DNA from: Candidatus Uhrbacteria bacterium RIFOXYB2_FULL_45_11
Lineage (GTDB): Bacteria; Patescibacteriota; Patescibacteriia; UBA9934; GWF2-40-263
Assembly (NCBI GenBank): GCA_001791715.1
Contig: MGFD01000030.1
Coordinates: 9,246 to 41,609, forward strand
Direction: 5' to 3'
Length of the DNA stretch: 32,364 bases
Shown: piece after piece, positions 3,616 to 28,482 of the stretch
How the letters are laid out: each line of letters opens with the position of its first letter
How positions within the stretch are numbered: the stretch's first letter is position 1
Made by a program: the position numbers and the translations under genes
The notes under the pieces: model-generated
Seen by the model: the letters and a program-made list of their open reading frames with translations, nothing else
What the model was told of the DNA's origin: nothing
The model's database searches: none

Positions 3616-3687
3616 GGAGAGTGTGAGATCGGAGGTCTCGCCCAACATCCCGCTTCGCGGTCTGTCCAAACCTTCGGTTTGGCGCCA
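3616..3687 (+). repeat. R2: copy 2 of the structured tRNA-like repeat
   Basis: Identical to R1 except for one A/G change and a 3-nt CTC indel. It ends in GCCA, and similarity to the R1 trailer continues to about 3710. Confidence 0.85.
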
Positions 3688-3729
3688 TACAAAAACACCG
3701 AACGCAAATGTTCGGTGTTTCTGTATGGC
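3684..3729. terminator. 20-bp-stem palindromic hairpin shared by convergent R2 and tRNA-Ser(UGA)
   Basis: Arms at 3684-3703 and 3710-3729 pair at 19 of 20 positions; the loop is GCAAAT. U-runs follow on both strands. The stem includes the GCCA 3' end of the tRNA. Confidence 0.7.
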
Positions 3730-8625: not shown

Positions 8626-9423
8626 ATGGATTTTCTTCCTGTTTTGAAAGCGATCATTCTCGGAATTGTGGAAGGGGTGACGGAGTTTCTCCCAATCTCA
8701 TCCACAGGGCATTTGATTCTTGTAAATCAATGGGTTTCGTTTGATCCGGCGTTTACCAAACTATTCGATGTTATTATTCAGCTCGGAGCGATTCTTGCAG
8801 TCGTTGTGTATTTTCGAAACGAGATTTGTCCGTGCACGGCACCTAAGGAAAAACGTCCAGAGATTTTTGCCCTTTGGAAAAAGTTACTTATCGGTGTACT
8901 TCCTGCGATTGTGCTTGGCGCATTGTTTGCAAGTAAAATTGAAGAGAAGCTTTTTAATCCGCTCACTGTTTCTATTGCGCTTGTCATTGGGGGTGTTGCG
9001 CTTGTTATGATTGAGAAGCGTAAACACAAAGAAGTATTTACATCGATCAAACAATTGGGTGTTAAAACTGTTTTGCTCATTGGACTCTTTCAATGTCTCG
9101 CCATGATTCCGGGAACGTCTCGATCCGCTGCAACGATTATTGGCGCGCTGCTTCTTGGTGCATCTCGTGTTGTTGCGGTTGAATTTTCATTTTTTCTTGC
9201 GATCCCAACGATGATCGCTGCTTCCGGATATACGCTCATCAAACATTGGCAAAATCTTTCGAGCATGGATTTTGCTCTTCTTGCCGTTGGATTCCTCACC
9301 GCATTTTTTGTTGCGTATCTTGTCATTTCGCAATTCATGCAATTTATCCGAAAACACTCACTCGCTGTGTTCGGTCATTATCGTATTATTTTAGGAATTT
9401 TAATTTTGTTGTTTTTGAATTAA
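8626..9423 (+). CDS. uppP: undecaprenyl-diphosphate phosphatase
   Basis: GIVEGVTEFLPISSTGHLIL...PGTSRSAATI, the classic BacA/UppP motifs; 265 aa. Confidence 0.95.
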   Translation: MDFLPVLKAIILGIVEGVTEFLPISSTGHLILVNQWVSFDPAFTKLFDVIIQLGAILAVVVYFRNEICPCTAPKEKRPEIFALWKKLLIGVLPAIVLGALFASKIEEKLFNPLTVSIALVIGGVALVMIEKRKHKEVFTSIKQLGVKTVLLIGLFQCLAMIPGTSRSAATIIGALLLGASRVVAVEFSFFLAIPTMIAASGYTLIKHWQNLSSMDFALLAVGFLTAFFVAYLVISQFMQFIRKHSLAVFGHYRIILGILILLFLN

Positions 9424-9428
9424 TTTTT

Positions 9429-9506
9429 GTGTCATTCCGACCGACCAAAGGGAGCGGAGGAATCTCGCGTGTACGAGAGATCCCTCGGCTGCGCTCGGGA
9501 TGACAA
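9429..9506 (+). repeat. P1: GTCAT...ATGAC palindromic element directly upstream of the next start codon
   Basis: It shares tgtcat..., atctcgcgtKtacgWgagatccctcggctgcgct and cgggatgaca with 27163-27272. Outer arms gtcattccga / ctcgggatgac. Confidence 0.8.
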
Positions 9507-10687: not shown

Positions 10688-10764
10688 GCGCTCGTAGCTC
10701 AGCTGGATAGAGCATCAGCTTGCGGAGCTGAGGGTCGTAGGTTCAAATCCTGCCGGGCGCACCA
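10688..10764 (+). tRNA. tRNA-Arg (anticodon GCG), CCA encoded
   Basis: GCGCTCG TA GCTC AGCTGGATA GAGC A TCAGC TTGCGGA GCTGA GGGTC GTAGG TTCAAAT CCTGC CGGGCGC A CCA. A20, C35 and G36 fit Arg identity. Confidence 0.85.
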
Positions 10765-10772
10765 TAACAATT

Positions 10773-11102
10773 ATGGCTTGGGTATATATATTAAAAAGCG
10801 ATCTTGATGGTCGTTTTTATGTTGGAAGTACGACGGATATTGAGCGTAGAATTATTCAGCATGAACGAAATCAAACACCATCAACATATCGAATGCAGGC
10901 GCATAAACTGGTTTTCTCTCAAGAATATTCAACGCTTCGTGAAGCTCGAGAAATTGAGAGGCGACTTAAAAAACTGAAACGAAAAGATTATTTACAAAAG
11001 ATTATAAATGAGGGTTTGATTCGAATGCGACCTGGCGAGAGCCCCGACGCGCCGAATGATAAACTGTCGGCGGTCGGGGTCCCGACAATCGACAGTATTT
11101 AA
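10773..11102 (+). CDS. small GIY-YIG nuclease-domain protein
   Basis: MAWVYILKSDLDGRFYVGSTTDIERRIIQHE... The ATG lies only 8 nt after the tRNA-Arg CCA. The stop codon sits in the loop of a hairpin (arms at 11081-11094 and 11105-11119). Confidence 0.8.
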   Translation: MAWVYILKSDLDGRFYVGSTTDIERRIIQHERNQTPSTYRMQAHKLVFSQEYSTLREAREIERRLKKLKRKDYLQKIINEGLIRMRPGESPDAPNDKLSAVGVPTIDSI

Positions 11103-11120
11103 CGTGTCGATTCGTCGGGA

Positions 11121-11157
11121 CTGAGGGTCGTAGGTTCAAATCCTGCTGGGCGCACCA
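11121..11157 (+). repeat. duplicated 3' half of tRNA-Arg (direct repeat of 10728-10764)
   Basis: ctgagggtcgtaggttcaaatcctgcYgggcgcacca. 36 of 37 positions are identical to the 3' part of the intact tRNA. Confidence 0.9.
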
Positions 11158-11164
11158 CAAAAAA

Positions 11165-11211: not shown

Positions 11212-13371
11212 ATGTCTTCATCTATGTCTCTTCGACTCACAACGCCTGTTTCTGGACTTCCGGGAATAGGGGATAAAGCTGCGACCGATCTTGCCTCGAT
11301 TCATGTGAAAACCGTTCGGGATCTTTTGTGGTATGTGCCGTTTCGTTACGATGACTTTTCGAAGCGTGTACCGATTGCGAAGGCTCCAATCGATACTCCT
11401 GTGACGATTGATGCACGCATTAAGTCGATTGGGCTTCGTCCTTCAAGATCAAGTCGTGTGAAGATTGTGGATGCGGTGATTGAAGATGAGACGGGAGAGT
11501 TGAAAGTGATATGGTTCAATCAACTGTATTTGTTAAAGACGATGCTGGTTGGATCGAAACATTCCTTTGCAGGTTTGATCGACCATCGATTTGGAAAAAC
11601 GTTTTCGAATCCGATCCATGAACCTGTTGGACAGAATGTGAATACTGGTCGCATTGTTCCGGTGTATGGATTGACGGGCGGAATCACGATGCGCAAACTG
11701 CGTGACGCGATCAAACGCTCGCTTACGATTGTCGACACACTTCCAGATTGGTTGCCGAGCGAGATTGTCGCATCAAAAGAATTGCCAGCATTGTCAGCGG
11801 CACTTTCGAGCGTACACTTTCCAGAATCACACGAAGCCTTGCAGCGCGGAATAGATCGTCTCAAGTTCGACGAATTATTTTTGCATCAGATGTTGTTCGA
11901 AGAAGTACGCCGCGATCGCAAGACCAAGAATGCGACCGCGATCCCAATCGATGAGGCATCGATTAAAACGTTTGTTGCAACACTTCCGTTTACGCTTACG
12001 CGCGCGCAAAAAGTGGCGGCCTGGGAAATTGTTCAAGATCTCGCGAAGGATGTTCCGATGAATCGTTTGCTCGAGGGTGATGTTGGATCTGGAAAAACGG
12101 TCGTCGCCGCGATCGCCGCACACGCTGCGATGGAACCCCCTCTCCCTTTGGGGGAGAGGGATGGGGAGAGGGGTGTTTCGGTTGTGTACCTTGCGCCAAC
12201 GGAAATTCTCGCAACACAACAACACAAAGCGTTTTGTAAAATGATGCCTTCTCGAAACATTGCACTCCTCACACATAATCAAATTTTTTATAATGCGGAG
12301 AAAGTTAAACGCGCAGAGTTGATCGAGAAAATCTCGAGCGGCGCGGTCGACTGTTTGATCGGAACACATGCGGTTTTACAAGAGGGAATTGATGTTTCAA
12401 ATGCGTCGCTTGTGATTATCGACGAGCAACACAGATTCGGTGTTGCGCAACGTCATGCGCTTTTGCATCGTAACCCCTCTCCCCAACCCTCCCCCTCGCA
12501 GGGGAGGGAGTACGCGCCGCATTTACTTTCGATGACCGCAACGCCAATCCCTCGCTCGCTTGCGCTCACGATTTACGGTGACCTCGAACTTTCCATTCTC
12601 GACGAGCTTCCAAAAGGCCGCAAGCCCATCGGAACCGCAATGGTGCCGGTCGAGCAACGCGTTGGTATGTGGAAACATGTTCGGTCCGAGATTGAAAGCG
12701 GAAGACAAGCATTCGTGATTTGTCCGCTCATCGATCCATCCGATTCGCTTGGAAGCAAATCTGTGACAGAAGTTGAGAAAATGCTCACAGCCCTCTCTCC
12801 TCATCGAGGAGAGAGCGGGGAGAGAGGTGTTCTGAACGGTTTACGTGTCACAACGCTTCATGGAAAGTTGAAGTCGGACGAGAAACAAAAACGCAATGAG
12901 GATTTTCGTGACGGAAAGATCGACGTGCTTGTTTCCACAACTGTGGTCGAAGTCGGTGTCGACGTGCCGAATGCGACCGTCATGGTCATCATGAGCGCCG
13001 AGCGATTCGGCCTTGCACAGCTTCACCAGCTGCGAGGACGTGTCGGACGATCTGATCTGCAATCGTATTGCTACTTGTTGCCCGACGATTTGAATCCACA
13101 TTCGAACAATCGTTTGCAAGCCGTGGTCGAGTCGCAGAACGGATTTGAGCTTGCCGAGCGCGATCTTGAATTGCGCGGCGCCGGAAACGTCTTTGGGAAC
13201 GCCCAGTCCGGATTCCCAGACTTCCAGTTCGCAACGTCTGCGGACGTTCCGCTCATGAAACAAGCGCGCGATTGGTCGCAAAAACTTCTTCTCGAAAAAG
13301 ATTTCTTTGAGAAACATCCACTCGTGCGTGCGCGGATCGAAGAAGCACTCGAACAGATTCATTTGGAATAA
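11212..13371 (+). CDS. recG: ATP-dependent DNA helicase RecG
   Basis: GDVGSGKTVVA, DEQHRFGV, MTATPIPRSLA, TTVVEVGVDVPNAT and QLRGRVGR motifs. ATG 11212 was preferred over TTG 11188. Confidence 0.9.
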   Translation: MSSSMSLRLTTPVSGLPGIGDKAATDLASIHVKTVRDLLWYVPFRYDDFSKRVPIAKAPIDTPVTIDARIKSIGLRPSRSSRVKIVDAVIEDETGELKVIWFNQLYLLKTMLVGSKHSFAGLIDHRFGKTFSNPIHEPVGQNVNTGRIVPVYGLTGGITMRKLRDAIKRSLTIVDTLPDWLPSEIVASKELPALSAALSSVHFPESHEALQRGIDRLKFDELFLHQMLFEEVRRDRKTKNATAIPIDEASIKTFVATLPFTLTRAQKVAAWEIVQDLAKDVPMNRLLEGDVGSGKTVVAAIAAHAAMEPPLPLGERDGERGVSVVYLAPTEILATQQHKAFCKMMPSRNIALLTHNQIFYNAEKVKRAELIEKISSGAVDCLIGTHAVLQEGIDVSNASLVIIDEQHRFGVAQRHALLHRNPSPQPSPSQGREYAPHLLSMTATPIPRSLALTIYGDLELSILDELPKGRKPIGTAMVPVEQRVGMWKHVRSEIESGRQAFVICPLIDPSDSLGSKSVTEVEKMLTALSPHRGESGERGVLNGLRVTTLHGKLKSDEKQKRNEDFRDGKIDVLVSTTVVEVGVDVPNATVMVIMSAERFGLAQLHQLRGRVGRSDLQSYCYLLPDDLNPHSNNRLQAVVESQNGFELAERDLELRGAGNVFGNAQSGFPDFQFATSADVPLMKQARDWSQKLLLEKDFFEKHPLVRARIEEALEQIHLE
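12136..12175 (+). repeat. in-frame palindromic mini-element A within recG
   Basis: CCCCCTCTCCC-TTTGG-GGGAGAGGG-AT-GGGGAGAGGGGTG, translated as PPLPLGERDGERGV. Confidence 0.8.
12474..12510 (-). repeat. in-frame palindromic mini-element B within recG (reverse orientation)
   Basis: The reverse complement reads CTCCCTCCCC-TGCGAG-GGGGAGGG-TT-GGGGAGAGGGG. In the recG frame it is translated as NPSPQPSPSQGRE. Confidence 0.75.
12791..12829 (+). repeat. in-frame palindromic mini-element C within recG
   Basis: CCCTCTCTCCTC-ATC-GAGGAGAGAG-C-GGGGAGAGAGGTG, translated as SPHRGESGERGV. Confidence 0.8.
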
Positions 13372-13377
13372 ACATAA

Positions 13378-13410
13378 AACCACCCTTCGACAAGCTCAGG
13401 GTGGTTTTTT
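13378..13410. terminator. terminator hairpin between convergent recG and the 13415 gene
   Basis: aaccaccct-tcgacaagctc-agggtggtt followed by T-run. Confidence 0.7.
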
Positions 13411-23951: not shown

Positions 23952-23967
23952 AAAGGTGGAAATATTG

Positions 23968-24070
23968 GTAGATACGGATTACAGATGAATACAGATAGGG
24001 ATGACGTATCTGAAAAACGTTTTTCGGAACCGAATATCTCCATCTGTATTCATCTGTAATCCGTATCTAC
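23968..24070 (-). repeat. intercistronic element H3: perfect 29-bp inverted repeat between htpX and clpC
   Basis: gtagatacggattacagatgaatacagat (23968-23996) pairs with its exact complement at 24042-24070. The 45-nt spacer holds the 14-nt palindrome gaaaaacgtttttc (24012-24025). Confidence 0.9.
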
Positions 24071-24076
24071 ACACGT

Positions 24077-24973
24077 TTACAAACCAGCTTTCTTTAATCT
24101 CGCGATACGTTCTTCGATTGGTGGATGAGTGCTGAACATCTGTTCAAACTTTTTTGTGACGTGTGGGTCGAATGGATTTGCGAGGAAGAGGTGGGCTGTT
24201 GCGTGGTTTGCTTTTGACATGGGTTGGTCTTGTACGCTGATTTTTTCGAGTGCGCGAATGAGTCCATCTGGATAACGTGTGAGCAAACATCCGGATGCGT
24301 CTGCGAGATATTCGCGTTGGCGTGAAACCGCGAGTTTGATAAGTTGGGCAAAAATAGGGGAGAGAATCGCAAGCACGATTCCAACGATCAGGATGATTCC
24401 CGCACTACTGTTGTTGTCATTGTCTCGAGAGCCGCGGCCAAAGAAAAACGATCGTGTCATCATGTCAGATAAAAGCAAGACGACTCCGACAAGAACAACC
24501 ACAATGGTCATGACGCGAATATCGTAATTTCCAATGTGTGAGAGTTCATGCGCAAGAACACCTTCCAATTCTTGTCGATCGAGCGCTTGAAGGAGTCCGG
24601 TTGTGACGGCGACCGACGCGTGTTTTGGATCTCGGCCTGTTGCAAAGGCGTTCATGGCAGAGTCTTGGATCACGTAAATTTTTGGGGTTGGGAGTCCGGC
24701 GGTAATCGCGAGATTCTCGACGAGTCGAAACAGTTCTGGGTTATCTTGTTTTTCGATCGGTTTTGCACCAGACGCGGCAAGCGCAACAGAATCACCTTGA
24801 AAATATCCAACAAGCGTCATGACGGTGGAAATAATCACGGCAAGAAAAATGCCAGAAAAGGCATCACCCATCCAAAGACCAAATGCATAGCCGAGCAAAA
24901 TAATCACGACCGAGAAGAGTGAGATCAGAAACCAGGTTTTGTATTTGTTCGCAGAGATTTGGTCGTAGAGCAT
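24077..24973 (-). CDS. htpX: zinc metalloprotease HtpX
   Basis: VLAHELSHIGN (HExxH), four TM segments and C-terminal STHPPIEERIARL. Confidence 0.9.
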   Translation of the reverse strand: MLYDQISANKYKTWFLISLFSVVIILLGYAFGLWMGDAFSGIFLAVIISTVMTLVGYFQGDSVALAASGAKPIEKQDNPELFRLVENLAITAGLPTPKIYVIQDSAMNAFATGRDPKHASVAVTTGLLQALDRQELEGVLAHELSHIGNYDIRVMTIVVVLVGVVLLLSDMMTRSFFFGRGSRDNDNNSSAGIILIVGIVLAILSPIFAQLIKLAVSRQREYLADASGCLLTRYPDGLIRALEKISVQDQPMSKANHATAHLFLANPFDPHVTKKFEQMFSTHPPIEERIARLKKAGL

Positions 24974-25081
24974 AGGGGGAAGTAGAAAGTAGAGAGTAGA
25001 AAGTAGAGAGGAGATAGAAACGTTTTTTAAAATAGCTGCACCAACTAAAACCTTTCTACTTTCTACTTTTCCCTTTCTACT
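24974..25081 (-). repeat. intercistronic element H4: GTAGARA heptamer arrays in inverted orientation, filling the lemA-htpX spacer
   Basis: cat|AGGGGGA|AGTAGAA|AGTAGAG|AGTAGAA|AGTAGAG|AGG. The 31-nt arms at 24981-25011 and 25051-25081 pair at 26 of 31 positions. The spacer contains GAAACGTTTTTT. Confidence 0.85.
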
Positions 25082-25084
25082 TTT

Positions 25085-25636: not shown

Positions 25637-25743
25637 AGGGGAATGTTGGAAAGGTTTGAAATGTCGGAAAGGTCGGAAAGGAAACGTTGTAAAAACGTTT
25701 TGGATTACCTTTCAAACATTTCAGACCTTTCCGACCTTTCAGA
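25637..25743 (-). repeat. leader element H5: four plus four inverted 9-nt units (TCGGAAAGG family), abutting the lemA ATG
   Basis: AGGGGAATG|TTGGAAAGG|TTTGAAATG|TCGGAAAGG|TCGGAAAGG, then a 26-nt spacer (AAACGTT-GTAAA-AACGTTT), then CCTTTCAAA|CATTTCAGA|CCTTTCCGA|CCTTTCAGA. Confidence 0.85.
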
Positions 25744-25794: not shown

Positions 25795-27138
25795 ATGGAG
25801 ATACCAAAACACATTTTTCGTGCCTATGATATTCGCGGACTTCTCGCTGAAGTGACGCCTGATATTGCTCGCGTAGTCGGGATGGCGCTTGTTTCAAAAA
25901 CAGGGGCAAAAACCGTGATTGTCGGGCGCGATATGCGTGCAACGAGTCCAGAGCTTGAGCAAGCGGCGATCGAAGGAATTACGTCGATGGGCGCAAACGT
26001 CATCGCAATCGGACTTTGCAGTACATCGATGTTCAATTTTGCGGTTTCAAGCCAAGAACATATTGACGCTGGCATCATGATCACCGCCTCACACAACCCA
26101 CCAGAATTTAATGGAATGAAAATGGCACTCGCAAGCGGATTGCCGATTTCTGGTCTTGAGATTCTTGAAGAGGTGGAGCGTTCCCCCTCTCCTTTCGAAG
26201 GAGAGGGCAGGGGAGAGGTGTCCCATCAAGATATTCTTGGTGCTTACATCGACAAATGTCTCGCTGTCGAGAACTTACCCGATCTCTCTGGAACAAAACT
26301 CGTTATCGACTACGGAAACGGCATGGGAGCAATGTCGGTTCGTGAACTTTGTAAGCGTCTGAAGATCGAAGTGGTCGAACTTTATCCAGAACCAGATGCA
26401 CGTTTTCCAAACCATGAAGCGAATCCGGCAAAAGAAGAAACACTCGCGGATGTGAAAGCGGCTGTTGTTCGAGAAGGCGCAGATTTCGGAATCGCCCTCG
26501 ATGGCGATGCAGATCGTGTAGGGTTTATCGACAATGAAGGAGTTTCGTTGCGCGGTGATCTTACGCTCGCGCTTCTCGCGAAAGAGACGCTCTCGAGAAA
26601 ACCTGGATCAAAAGTTGTTGTCGCACCAAATCAAAGTTGGACCACGTTTGATTCGATCACAGAAAACGGTGGCGTTCCTCTTGAATGTCGTATTGGTCGC
26701 AAATTTGTCGTCGAGGCGGTGCAAAAACAAGGTGCGGTTCTTGGTGGGGAGGTTTCGAGCCATTTCTTCTTTGAAGAATTCCATGGGCTTGAAGCCGTCG
26801 ATCATGCGATCGTTCGCATCTTGTCGATCTGGAAACAATCCGGACAATCATTCGCCGATCTCGTGCGTCCATATCGCGCATATACAAATAGTGGCGAGGT
26901 GAATATTGAAGTGCACAATAAAGAACAGGTTCTGAGCAAGCTCGAACAGTATGCGGGGACAGCATCGAAAGTGAATAAGCTCGATGGAATTCGCTGTGAA
27001 TTTGATCGTGACTGGTGGTTTATTGTGCGACCATCGAATACGGAGCCATTACTTCGATTGATTGTGGAAGCAAAGACGCCGGAACTGATGGTACAGAAAC
27101 GCGACGAATTGGTTGCTTTGATTCAGACGAACGGGTAA
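25795..27138 (+). CDS. phosphomannomutase/phosphoglucomutase (alpha-D-phosphohexomutase)
   Basis: GIMITASHNPPEFNGMKM active-site loop, DGDADR metal loop, GGEVSSH sugar loop. 447 aa. Confidence 0.85.
   Translation: MEIPKHIFRAYDIRGLLAEVTPDIARVVGMALVSKTGAKTVIVGRDMRATSPELEQAAIEGITSMGANVIAIGLCSTSMFNFAVSSQEHIDAGIMITASHNPPEFNGMKMALASGLPISGLEILEEVERSPSPFEGEGRGEVSHQDILGAYIDKCLAVENLPDLSGTKLVIDYGNGMGAMSVRELCKRLKIEVVELYPEPDARFPNHEANPAKEETLADVKAAVVREGADFGIALDGDADRVGFIDNEGVSLRGDLTLALLAKETLSRKPGSKVVVAPNQSWTTFDSITENGGVPLECRIGRKFVVEAVQKQGAVLGGEVSSHFFFEEFHGLEAVDHAIVRILSIWKQSGQSFADLVRPYRAYTNSGEVNIEVHNKEQVLSKLEQYAGTASKVNKLDGIRCEFDRDWWFIVRPSNTEPLLRLIVEAKTPELMVQKRDELVALIQTNG
26183..26220 (+). repeat. in-frame palindromic mini-element D within the phosphohexomutase gene
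   Basis: CCCCCTCTCCTT-TCG-AAGGAGAGGG-C-AGGGGAGAGGTG, translated as SPSPFEGEGRGEV. Same architecture as the recG copies. Confidence 0.8.
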
Positions 27139-27162: not shown

Positions 27163-27272
27163 TGTCATCTTGAGCGACCGTTTTATGTCTAGTCGAAAGA
27201 TCTCGCGTTTACGTGAGATCCCTCGGCTGCGCTAAGAGGCTGCTTCGCAGTGCGCTCCGCTCGGGATGACAC
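27163..27272 (+). repeat. P2: GTCAT...ATGAC palindromic element directly upstream of tyrS
   Basis: It shares both ends and a 33-nt core with P1 and carries an extra 26-nt internal segment (aagaggctgcttcgcagtgcgctccg). It ends 8 nt before the tyrS ATG. Confidence 0.8.
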
Positions 27273-27279
27273 AAAATTT

Positions 27280-28482
27280 ATGTCCACAAATACCGATAAA
27301 GATGCAATCAATCACTTGCTTACGCGCGGGGTAGAAAATATCTACCCGTCTTTCGATTATCTTGAGGCGCGCTTGAATGAGGGGAAACAACTCACATTGT
27401 ATCTTGGAATCGATCCAACCGGTCCAGATTTACATTTGGGTCACGCGATTCCACTTCGCAAAATGGCAGAATTCCAAAAACTTGGTCACAAGTTGATTTT
27501 GCTTATTGGGGATTTCACGGCGATGATTGGCGATCCAACAGATAAATCCGCAACGCGTGTGCAGCAAACGCGCGAGCAAGTTCTTGCGAATGCCGCGAAG
27601 TATAAAGAACAAGCGAGCAAAATCATTTCGTTTGAAGGCGAGAATGCGGCTGAACTCAAATACAACAGCGAATGGCTCGCGAAACTCGGATTCACAGATG
27701 TTGTTGAACTCGCGTCGAACTTTACGGTTCAACAAATGCTTGAACGTGATATGTTCGAAAAGCGTATTGCAGAAGGAAAGCCCGTTCATCTTCATGAGTT
27801 CCTCTATCCATTGATGCAAGCGTACGATTCGGTTGCGATGGATGTCGATGGTGAAATTGGTGGAAACGATCAAACATTCAACATGCTTGCGGGTCGCGAT
27901 TTGATGAAATCGTTGAAAGGAAAAGAAAAATTCGTCATCACTTCGAAATTGCTTACGGATCCAACTGGAAAGAAAATGGGAAAGAGTGAAGGGAACATGA
28001 TCACGCTCTCAGACACACCAGACGATGTGTTCGGCAAAGTCATGAGTTGGACCGATGGAATGATTATTCCTGGATTCGAGATTCTGACGGATCTTCCAAA
28101 CGGAGAAATTAAAGAGATGAAAATCGCGATGGGAGACGGTGTGAATCCACGCGACTTCAAGGTGAAGCTCGCGGCAGAAGTAGTTGCGACGTTTTTCGAC
28201 AGAGCAACGGGTGACGCAGCCGTTGATCGATTCAACAAATTATTCCAAGAACACGCCGTACCGGAAGATGTTCCAGAAGTAAAACTCGAAGGTGCGATGA
28301 GTATCGTTGACGCACTCGTTGCAACCAAGCTTGCGCAATCAAAAGGCGACGCGCGTCGATTAATCGACGGCGGGGGAGTAAAGGTGAACGAGGAAGTCGT
28401 GACCTCATATGATTTTGTTGTGGATCCTGCAATGAGTCCGTTGTTGCAAAAGGGAAAAAGACATTTTGCGCGTATTGTGTAA
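27280..28482 (+). CDS. tyrS: tyrosine--tRNA ligase
   Basis: PTGPDLHLGH (HIGH), KMGKS (KMSKS) and a C-terminal S4-like domain. ATG 27280 was preferred; the ORF-track start at 27250 lies in P2. Confidence 0.95.
   Translation: MSTNTDKDAINHLLTRGVENIYPSFDYLEARLNEGKQLTLYLGIDPTGPDLHLGHAIPLRKMAEFQKLGHKLILLIGDFTAMIGDPTDKSATRVQQTREQVLANAAKYKEQASKIISFEGENAAELKYNSEWLAKLGFTDVVELASNFTVQQMLERDMFEKRIAEGKPVHLHEFLYPLMQAYDSVAMDVDGEIGGNDQTFNMLAGRDLMKSLKGKEKFVITSKLLTDPTGKKMGKSEGNMITLSDTPDDVFGKVMSWTDGMIIPGFEILTDLPNGEIKEMKIAMGDGVNPRDFKVKLAAEVVATFFDRATGDAAVDRFNKLFQEHAVPEDVPEVKLEGAMSIVDALVATKLAQSKGDARRLIDGGGVKVNEEVVTSYDFVVDPAMSPLLQKGKRHFARIV

Follow-up and report, generated by a model that had tools for sequence, protein, structure and literature searches.

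The recG gene of Candidatus Uhrbacteria bacterium RIFOXYB2_FULL_45_11 reads through three short palindromic elements (A, B and C) without loss of frame, and a fourth copy (D) lies in frame in a phosphomannomutase/phosphoglucomutase gene nearby. Both genes lie on the window analysed here, a 32,364-nucleotide stretch of contig MGFD01000030.1. On the basis of sequence comparison, these elements are assigned to a bacteria-wide motif that has been described under the names BoxC, PIT (potential intrastrand triplex), TMECO and HPG1/HPG2. Motifs of this type have been known since the 1990s, and to our knowledge neither their origin nor their function has ever been assigned. Our reading, to which we give roughly three chances in four, is that the window elements are solo copies of this triplex-motif (TM) repeat, that they are selfish or neutral DNA residing in protein loops, and that they are probably non-autonomous relatives of cassettes in which the motif brackets a gene for a DUF559 nuclease. 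A wider proposal is put forward more tentatively, with somewhat less than even confidence: BoxC/PIT/TMECO/HPG may be the inverted repeats at the ends of a hitherto unrecognised family of minimal, ~0.4-kb DUF559 selfish elements, the solos and pairs being its non-autonomous offspring, with solos and cassettes alike colonising essential genes in frame. Both proceed from what could be demonstrated, namely the identity of the motif, its lineage-specific presence and absence, its placement in loops, in-frame copies elsewhere and a TM-DUF559-TM architecture that also occurs in Uhrbacteria.

The RecG product has intact RecG_wedge, DEAD/ResIII and Helicase_C domains (Pfam) and matches the T. maritima RecG structure 1GM5 with E=4e-120. 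A preliminary description of this DNA, made from the sequence alone, had reported three in-frame palindromes in recG; their coordinates, sequences and peptides were confirmed (Table 1), as was their placement just after the GSGKT segment, between DEQHRFG and MTATPIPR, and just before TTLHGKL. The shared layout that it described for all three also stands, namely a C-rich arm, a loop, a complementary G-rich arm, a spacer and a second G-rich block, extending over ~37-40 nt in recG. The loop measures 3-7 nt and the spacer 1-3 nt. Further copies had been expected, and these were found in the phosphomannomutase gene of the window and in the recG and radA genes of relatives. Element D, which the description had missed, was detected as a direct repeat 82% identical to A and occupies the linker between PGM_PMM domains I and II (Pfam: residues 6-120 and 150-249).

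Table 1. Palindromic elements and their host genes in the window
Feature	Position	Strand	Description	Peptide
recG host gene	11212..13371	+	ORF, 719 aa, P0001 (100% match)	
Element A	12136..12175	+ (sense)	CCCCCTCTCCCTTTGGGGGAGAGGGATGGGGAGAGGGGTG; canonical TM copy	PPLPLGERDGERGV
Element B	12474..12510	- (antisense to recG)	TM copy	NPSPQPSPSQGRE
Element C	12791..12829	+ (sense)	degenerate TM variant, CTCTCTCC / GGAGAGAG / GGGGAGAGAGG	SPHRGESGERGV
Host ORF of element D	25795-27138		phosphomannomutase/phosphoglucomutase gene	
Element D	26183..26221	+	fourth TM copy, in frame	SPSPFEGEGRGEV

With up to one mismatch, GGGGAGAGG occurs 12 times in the window against 2.56 expected (4.7-fold), a count that none of 100 shuffles reached; the enrichment exceeds chance. 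Three of the four copies within the 32 kb are in sense and one is in antisense orientation. They share the tail GGGGAGAG, the corresponding tail of the copies in the related locus L007 being GGGGGTGG. DNA folding, computed with Watson-Crick pairing only, gave a 9-10-bp hairpin for each of A-D, and the C-arm of A can pair with either of its G blocks. A four-tract G-quadruplex (G4) motif (G3+N1-7 x4) is present in A (GGGGGAGAGGGATGGGGAGAGGGG, G strand) and in B, and was not found in C and D. Rfam, at gathering thresholds, recognised three tRNAs in the window and no RNA family over the elements.

The family to which we assign these elements includes the E. coli BoxC and PIT repeats, TMECO (Holder et al. 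2015, Nucleic Acids Research 43:10126, PMC4666352) and the HPG1/HPG2 'G-quadruplex-hairpin-duplex switch' (Kaplan et al. 2016, Nucleic Acids Research 44:9083, PMC5100583). In vitro, its single strand takes up a purine-motif C-G-G intrastrand triplex (CD/NMR), to which a hairpin/G-quadruplex is an alternative (PMC4666352, PMC5100583). Salmonella is reported to have no TMECO, and E. coli strains with 1 and with 29 copies occur. The TMECO pattern is 5'-CCCTCNCCC N3-6 GGGNGAGGG N3 GGGNGAGGG-3' with one mismatched triplet permitted (PMC4666352). Element A matches it exactly at 12138-12172, with no match in 100 shuffles; B and D fit with 1-3 mismatches, and C, a degenerate CT/GA variant, does not fit the strict pattern. 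In an alignment, A-D are collinear with the motifs that flank DUF559 genes in Uhrbacteria and with the E. coli BoxC near ycjD. The window copies have the three-block architecture and nearly the same sequence as the known family and share its hairpin potential and, in A and B, its G4 potential; they are likewise dispersed and multi-copy, occur in both orientations and vary in presence among close relatives. They differ in location, as all four lie inside ORFs and in frame, as do the copies in recG and radA of relatives, whereas the E. coli copies are reported to be 'always intergenic' (23/23 in one study, all members of both groups in the other; PMC4666352, PMC5100583). The elements are filed in the TMECO family as an intragenic variant, since an intergenic location was reported for the E. 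coli copies and does not enter into the sequence definition.

Homologues that are 85-89% identical to the window RecG come from Uhrbacteria. In a protein alignment of 36 sequences, the nearest orthologues (P0003, P0004 and P0007; 679 aa, 83-90% identical) lack all three insert peptides, which are also missing from about 25 more distant Uhrbacteria RecGs, and the T. maritima protein 1GM5 has gaps at all three places; the expectation of lineage-specific inserts was thus borne out. Codon-level DNA comparison with loci L001 and L005 revealed clean empty sites for A, B and C, relative to which the net insert sizes are +45, +30 and +33 nt, respectively. Site A is filled by different variants of the same architecture in P0002, P0005, P0006, P0008 and P0009, and is thus a hot spot. 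Another motif variant is present at site B in L007, and element C was found only in the window protein among the aligned orthologues. P0009, which is filled, and P0010, which is empty, are 96% identical. The radA gene varies likewise, encoding 430 aa without a motif in the window and 439 and 441 aa with a motif in L001 and L007, respectively. These patterns mark the elements as insertions that were gained or lost recently. The preliminary description had proposed a mobile or recombinogenic family that inserts into coding DNA in frame. In-frame insertion is upheld; mobility is deduced from how presence and absence are distributed and from how the DUF559 cassettes are built, no transposition event having been seen; and the family is one already known.

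The inserts fall where a protein may be expected to accommodate them, as had been suggested earlier. In an AlphaFold2 model of RecG with a mean predicted local distance difference test (pLDDT) score of 77, insert residues 312-318 (A), 422-431 (B) and 529-536 (C) take the form of low-confidence coil (pLDDT below 50), placed between elements of regular secondary structure in the two RecA-like domains. Of six possible frames, 6, 6, 5 and 6 are free of stop codons in A, B, C and D, respectively, and every frame of the motif encodes Pro/Ser/Gly/Glu/Arg-rich sequence. Translation of the four copies uses three different combinations of frame and orientation. Because these three readings yield unrelated peptides, conservation is at the DNA level and the peptides are not conserved. 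The motif is also open in 4-6 frames in nearly all of the other scanned copies among the matches listed. Copies persist because the net insertions are multiples of three, because the motif carries no stop codon in 5-6 of 6 frames and because the encoded coil is tolerated by a surface loop or an inter-domain linker.

Genomes, metagenomes and viral contigs each gave at least 120 matches when scanned for the pattern, and the frequencies given here describe samples and not censuses. A degenerate pattern, scanned against one genome per GTDB species, matched loci with non-conserved flanks; the phyla and groups among the matches listed include Proteobacteria, Bacteroidota, Chloroflexota, Planctomycetota, Cyanobacteria, Verrucomicrobiota, Bifidobacterium and others. 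The strict TMECO pattern, in contrast, was reported from 262 proteobacterial genomes (Holder et al., PMC4666352), whereas the window belongs to a bacterium of the candidate phyla radiation (CPR). The JGI metagenomes were scanned with the low-GC variant CCCCYCTCCTT...AAGGAGRGG...GGGGRDRG. In loci with GC below 0.5, a copy was counted as ORF-spanning if a stop-free frame of at least 50 codons extended on both sides; high-GC loci were left out of the coding evidence because long spurious ORFs are common at high GC. Among the matches listed, 25 low-GC copies span long ORFs, 43 do not and 7 lie at contig ends, so that 25/68 assessable copies are ORF-spanning, and these in-gene copies occur in both orientations. 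All ten spanning ORFs that were tested are genuine proteins by Pfam, namely two methionyl-tRNA synthetases (MetRS), another class I aminoacyl-tRNA synthetase (aaRS), Dus, an O-antigen ligase, DUF4012, TsaD, ComEC, GatB and a BolA-binding-protein fusion. In-frame copies inside genes appear to be new and to be common in low-GC environmental bacteria; no earlier description of in-frame palindromes in CPR/Patescibacteria was found in the literature searched, whose scope left subscription journals mostly outside.

Two observations stand beside this survey. In the ORF at L239 5509-6882, a BolA domain and a periplasmic-binding-protein domain are separated by a TM copy (residues 130-143), and a repeat open in all frames may have fused the BolA and binding-protein genes. 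Among IMG/VR viral contigs (L256-L375), which contributed at least 120 motif matches, two DUF559 domains were found, both flanked by the motif; phages or prophages could carry the element between phyla, and provirus contigs could include host flanks.

All motif-centred loci were searched for DUF559 because in one in-frame case, L054, a DUF559 domain lies between two motifs. The search, with tblastn and a custom hidden Markov model (HMM), covered three locus sets totalling about 2.6 Mb, and all 11 DUF559 domains that it found lie within about 200 bp of a motif (six in the genome set, three in the metagenome set and two in the IMG/VR set). The usual cassette has one copy in plus orientation, TM(+), 48-195 bp upstream of the gene and one in minus orientation, TM(-), 21-49 bp downstream; their G tails face inward, and the two ends of a given cassette have the same loop sequence. 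It is ~0.4 kb in size, and the DUF559 (Vsr-like PD-(D/E)XK) nuclease is its only gene.

The reverse test, starting from DUF559 genes, gave a flanking motif in all cases, i.e. in L251 and L253 (both Uhrbacteria), L254 (Bacteroidota), L255 (unassigned) and at ycjD of E. coli. In the four former loci TM(-) lies at the 3' end (4/4) and TM(+) upstream in three (3/4). The TAA stop codon of the DUF559 gene is the complement of the TTA spacer of the motif in L251 and L254, and the DUF559 ORF of L253 ends at a TAG in the corresponding spacer. Between the Uhrbacteria cassettes of L251 and L253, homology extends over exactly 405 bp and is bounded by the motifs, while the genomic contexts are unrelated. 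C-terminal peptides of the motif type were present in 38/120 DUF559 homologues versus 0/120 RecG controls. One member, the Uhrbacteria protein P0196, matches PF04480 and the PDB entry 3HRL, an 'endonuclease-like protein', and a homing endonuclease of a group I intron belongs to the Vsr/DUF559 group (PMC3424549). The idea that DUF559 had inserted into and split one pre-existing motif was considered and rejected, because both flanks are complete inverted motifs with matching loops.

Whole cassettes also occur in frame inside essential genes, in MetRS at L011 2-2161 (a Variovorax metagenome-assembled genome, MAG) and in leucyl-tRNA synthetase (LeuRS) at L054 5682-8000 (a Cytophagales MAG). They lengthen the product by about 140-170 residues, the nuclease domain among them. 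In neither ORF (L011, L054) did Pfam recognise an intein or splicing domain, and the cassette inserts are presumably retained in the host proteins. At the E. coli DUF559 gene ycjD, a BoxC copy is located about 165 bp downstream, adjoining fabI. This gene (formerly envM) is the site at which BoxC was first described. ycjD is accessory, being present in 3378/5426 complete E. coli genomes (62%). The connection between the motif and DUF559 appears to be new; the motif is tied to no gene in either PMC4666352 or PMC5100583, and in the same literature, judged from titles and abstracts, DUF559 was not connected with these repeats.

Some smaller repeats were seen in and around these loci. In E. coli K-12 (L129 6338-6465), 23 nt close to the 3' end of ycjD, GAATATTCTCCAGCACCGTCTCC, recur about 105 bp downstream, before BoxC, which suggests a remnant of a second DUF559 3' end. 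Directly 3' of the recG stop in the window, at 13380-13404, a hairpin followed by a T run resembles a terminator (CCACCCTTCGACAAGCTCAGGGTGG). This hairpin has TCGACAAGCTC(A)GGG in common with a palindrome nested in the downstream motif of the Uhrbacteria cassette L253 (4380-4410), and in L251 (3925-3960) the upstream motif has a further palindrome within its loop. From these nested arrangements, small palindromes appear to insert into one another.

How such copies came to lie in recG can be pictured as follows. Motif copies would have entered loop-coding parts of genes recently in this Uhrbacteria lineage, and could leave them again. The motif pair would constitute the inverted repeat at the ends of a minimal selfish element encoding DUF559, of which solo motifs and pairs without a gene would be non-autonomous derivatives, spread in trans by the DUF559 nuclease or by repair at the breaks that it makes. 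The open frames would let solos and whole cassettes enter recG, radA, aaRS, TsaD and GatB genes, especially in gene-dense CPR genomes, where intergenic space is scarce and the surviving copies would be those that landed in frame in loops. In E. coli, inverted pairs always consist of one TTA-spacer copy and one CCG-spacer copy (Holder et al., PMC4666352), which would fit cassettes that have lost their gene.

Several points weigh against this reading. Neither tblastn nor the custom HMM found a DUF559 gene in the window or in ~80 kb of eight related Uhrbacteria loci, and the link of DUF559 to the window genome is therefore indirect, resting on other Uhrbacteria MAGs; 277 of roughly 290 examined motif loci have no DUF559 nearby. 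The motifs flanking L054 are in the opposite orientation, with tails outward, and ycjD of E. coli has a clear motif on one side only. Adjacency could also arise if DUF559 genes targeted pre-existing motifs, and the E. coli motif is reported to have no association with transposons, phages or plasmids (Holder et al., PMC4666352). No target-site duplication or target consensus was seen at sites A-C in comparison with the empty L001 and L005, nor at the cassette ends. With nucleotide identity at ~80%, the ends of the inserts can be placed only to within a few bases, and precise gain is not separable from precise loss. In addition, the coding status of the metagenome copies rests on ORF length, with Pfam confirmation for 10 cases only.

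One alternative is spread without a dedicated enzyme, in which a hairpin, triplex or G-quadruplex stalls replication and causes breaks, copies are pasted by templated repair or gene conversion, and losses occur by slippage; DUF559 genes would merely land beside pre-existing motifs or be stabilised by them. In E. coli, local instability, small deletions and mutated copies have been connected with the motif, and slippage and repair were proposed for them (Holder et al., PMC4666352). The lack of a visible target-site duplication and of a nuclease gene near most copies also agrees with such a process, and gene conversion fits both the turnover of variants at one recG site and the within-genome likeness of copies. 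It leaves unexplained, however, why a ~35-nt sequence is common to nearly all phyla, why inverted complete copies with matching loops surround a nuclease ORF whose stop lies in the motif spacer, and why homology between cassettes at different loci ends exactly at the motifs. Enzyme-independent spread is possible for the solos, with the cassette architecture left unexplained, and as an account of the whole we consider it unlikely, though the strongest of the alternatives.

The remaining explanations are far less probable. A nucleic-acid switch in recG, in which hairpin, G-quadruplex and triplex forms control transcription, translation or mRNA stability, would draw on the four-tract G4 of A and B beside a competing C-arm, the arrangement of Kaplan et al. 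2016 (PMC5100583), and on the hairpins predicted for all four copies. We hold it to be improbable, since C and D have no G4 motif, B is antisense to the others, close relatives carry none of the recG inserts, and the hosts (recG, phosphomannomutase, radA, aaRS, TsaD and others) are unrelated; moreover, neither promoter nor terminator activity was detected for the E. coli motifs, and no triplex footprint was seen in vivo (PMC4666352, PMC5100583). That the peptides are adaptive, lineage-specific loops with incidental palindromy at the DNA level is more doubtful still. The modelled inserts do occupy loops on the surface of a helicase, places at which inserted residues can modulate interactions, but one DNA motif is read in three frame/orientation combinations to give unrelated peptides, hundreds of taxa carry the identical architecture in intergenic DNA, and presence differs between 96%-identical orthologues. 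Least credible of all is wrong joining of repeats into recG during assembly or binning, a concern raised in the preliminary description. Short GC-rich repeats can confuse short-read assemblers, and many of the DUF559 and motif contigs are short. An artefact is nevertheless contradicted by an identical 719-aa RecG ORF in two separate assemblies (ENA ERZ28563708 and JGI 3300025081), which serves as an approximation to the check desired, by the reading frame kept in all four inserts, and by analogous inserts in many independent MAGs and metagenomes.

The solo copies and cassettes may be compared with several known systems. Rickettsia palindromic elements (RPE; Ogata et al. 2000) are reportedly about 100-150 bp long, restricted to Rickettsia and found in frame in coding genes. 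Like them, the window elements are palindromic, in frame, tolerated in surface regions and free of stops in the frame used. Unlike them, they measure 33-45 nt, have a third block rich in G, are apparently unrelated in sequence and belong to a family found across bacteria. Membership of the RPE, judged by their described properties, was rejected as a length of 37-40 nt and an Uhrbacteria host do not fit. [quoted passage not shown] Inverted motif pairs together with a candidate autonomous unit, TM-DUF559-TM of about 0.4 kb, are MITE-like features, whereas no target-site duplication was seen and the recG copies are single ends.

A parallel in organisation is offered by the repetitive extragenic palindromes (REP) and REPINs and the RAYT transposase associated with them (Bertels & Rainey 2011, PMC3116915; Di Nocera et al. 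2013, PMC3733652). These too are short GC-rich hairpins that occur as singlets and inverted doublets with genome-specific variants, and a single-copy gene flanked by the repeats is proposed as the mobilising enzyme. The gene flanked here, however, encodes a DUF559 PD-(D/E)XK nuclease and not an IS200/IS605-type Y1 transposase, and the motifs are often inside genes whereas REPs are extragenic. Membership of the REP/RAYT group was rejected, as no GTAG or CGTC tag adjoins the hairpins; no search aimed at RAYT genes was made. By analogy, the relation of the motif to DUF559 would parallel those of REP/REPIN to RAYT and of MITEs to insertion sequences. The cassettes in MetRS and LeuRS also recall inteins and homing-endonuclease insertions in being in frame and in encoding a nuclease of a group that has a homing endonuclease; they differ in having no splicing domains recognised by Pfam (L011 and L054) and no evident specific homing site.

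The window contains other repeats, some of them next to recG. A tRNA-Arg gene (10688-10764) and a 90% copy of its 3' half (10723-10770 versus 11116-11163) enclose a 109-aa GIY-YIG nuclease ORF (10773-11102), an arrangement that resembles the integration of a single-gene nuclease cassette at a tRNA 3' end; GIY-YIG genes are found directly upstream of recG in L007 and L008 too. A 71-nt direct repeat (2568-2638 and 3616-3686, 97% identical) begins with ~29 nt similar to the first part of two tRNA-Ser regions, at 3726 and 4178 (69-72% identical), and these repeats may be further tRNA-end duplications. Large intergenic inverted repeats at 23957-24081, 24980-25082 and 25642-25738 flank htpX-like and lemA-like genes. 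With mostly purine-rich arms of 26-46 nt and spacers of 33-39 nt, and with the arm of the third recurring at 1724-1751, they form a separate dispersed family of hairpins and may be terminators or resemble MITEs. Finally, a 34-nt dispersed intergenic repeat occurs at 9462-9495 and 27200-27233 (94% identical), with inverted matches nearby at 9412-9443 and 27258-27289.

The motif is among the most widespread short repeats in bacteria and has been rediscovered four times, as BoxC, PIT, TMECO and HPG. Its in-frame copies in essential genes of small-genome bacteria remove the 'always intergenic' observation, on which arguments for a regulatory role were based in part. The inserts also put Pro/Gly-rich peptides into many CPR proteins, which affects annotation, alignments, structure prediction and phylogenetic markers. 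The TM-DUF559-TM cassette provides a candidate enzyme, YcjD in E. coli K-12, so that a model organism offers a direct test of where these repeats come from, how they spread and what DUF559 does.

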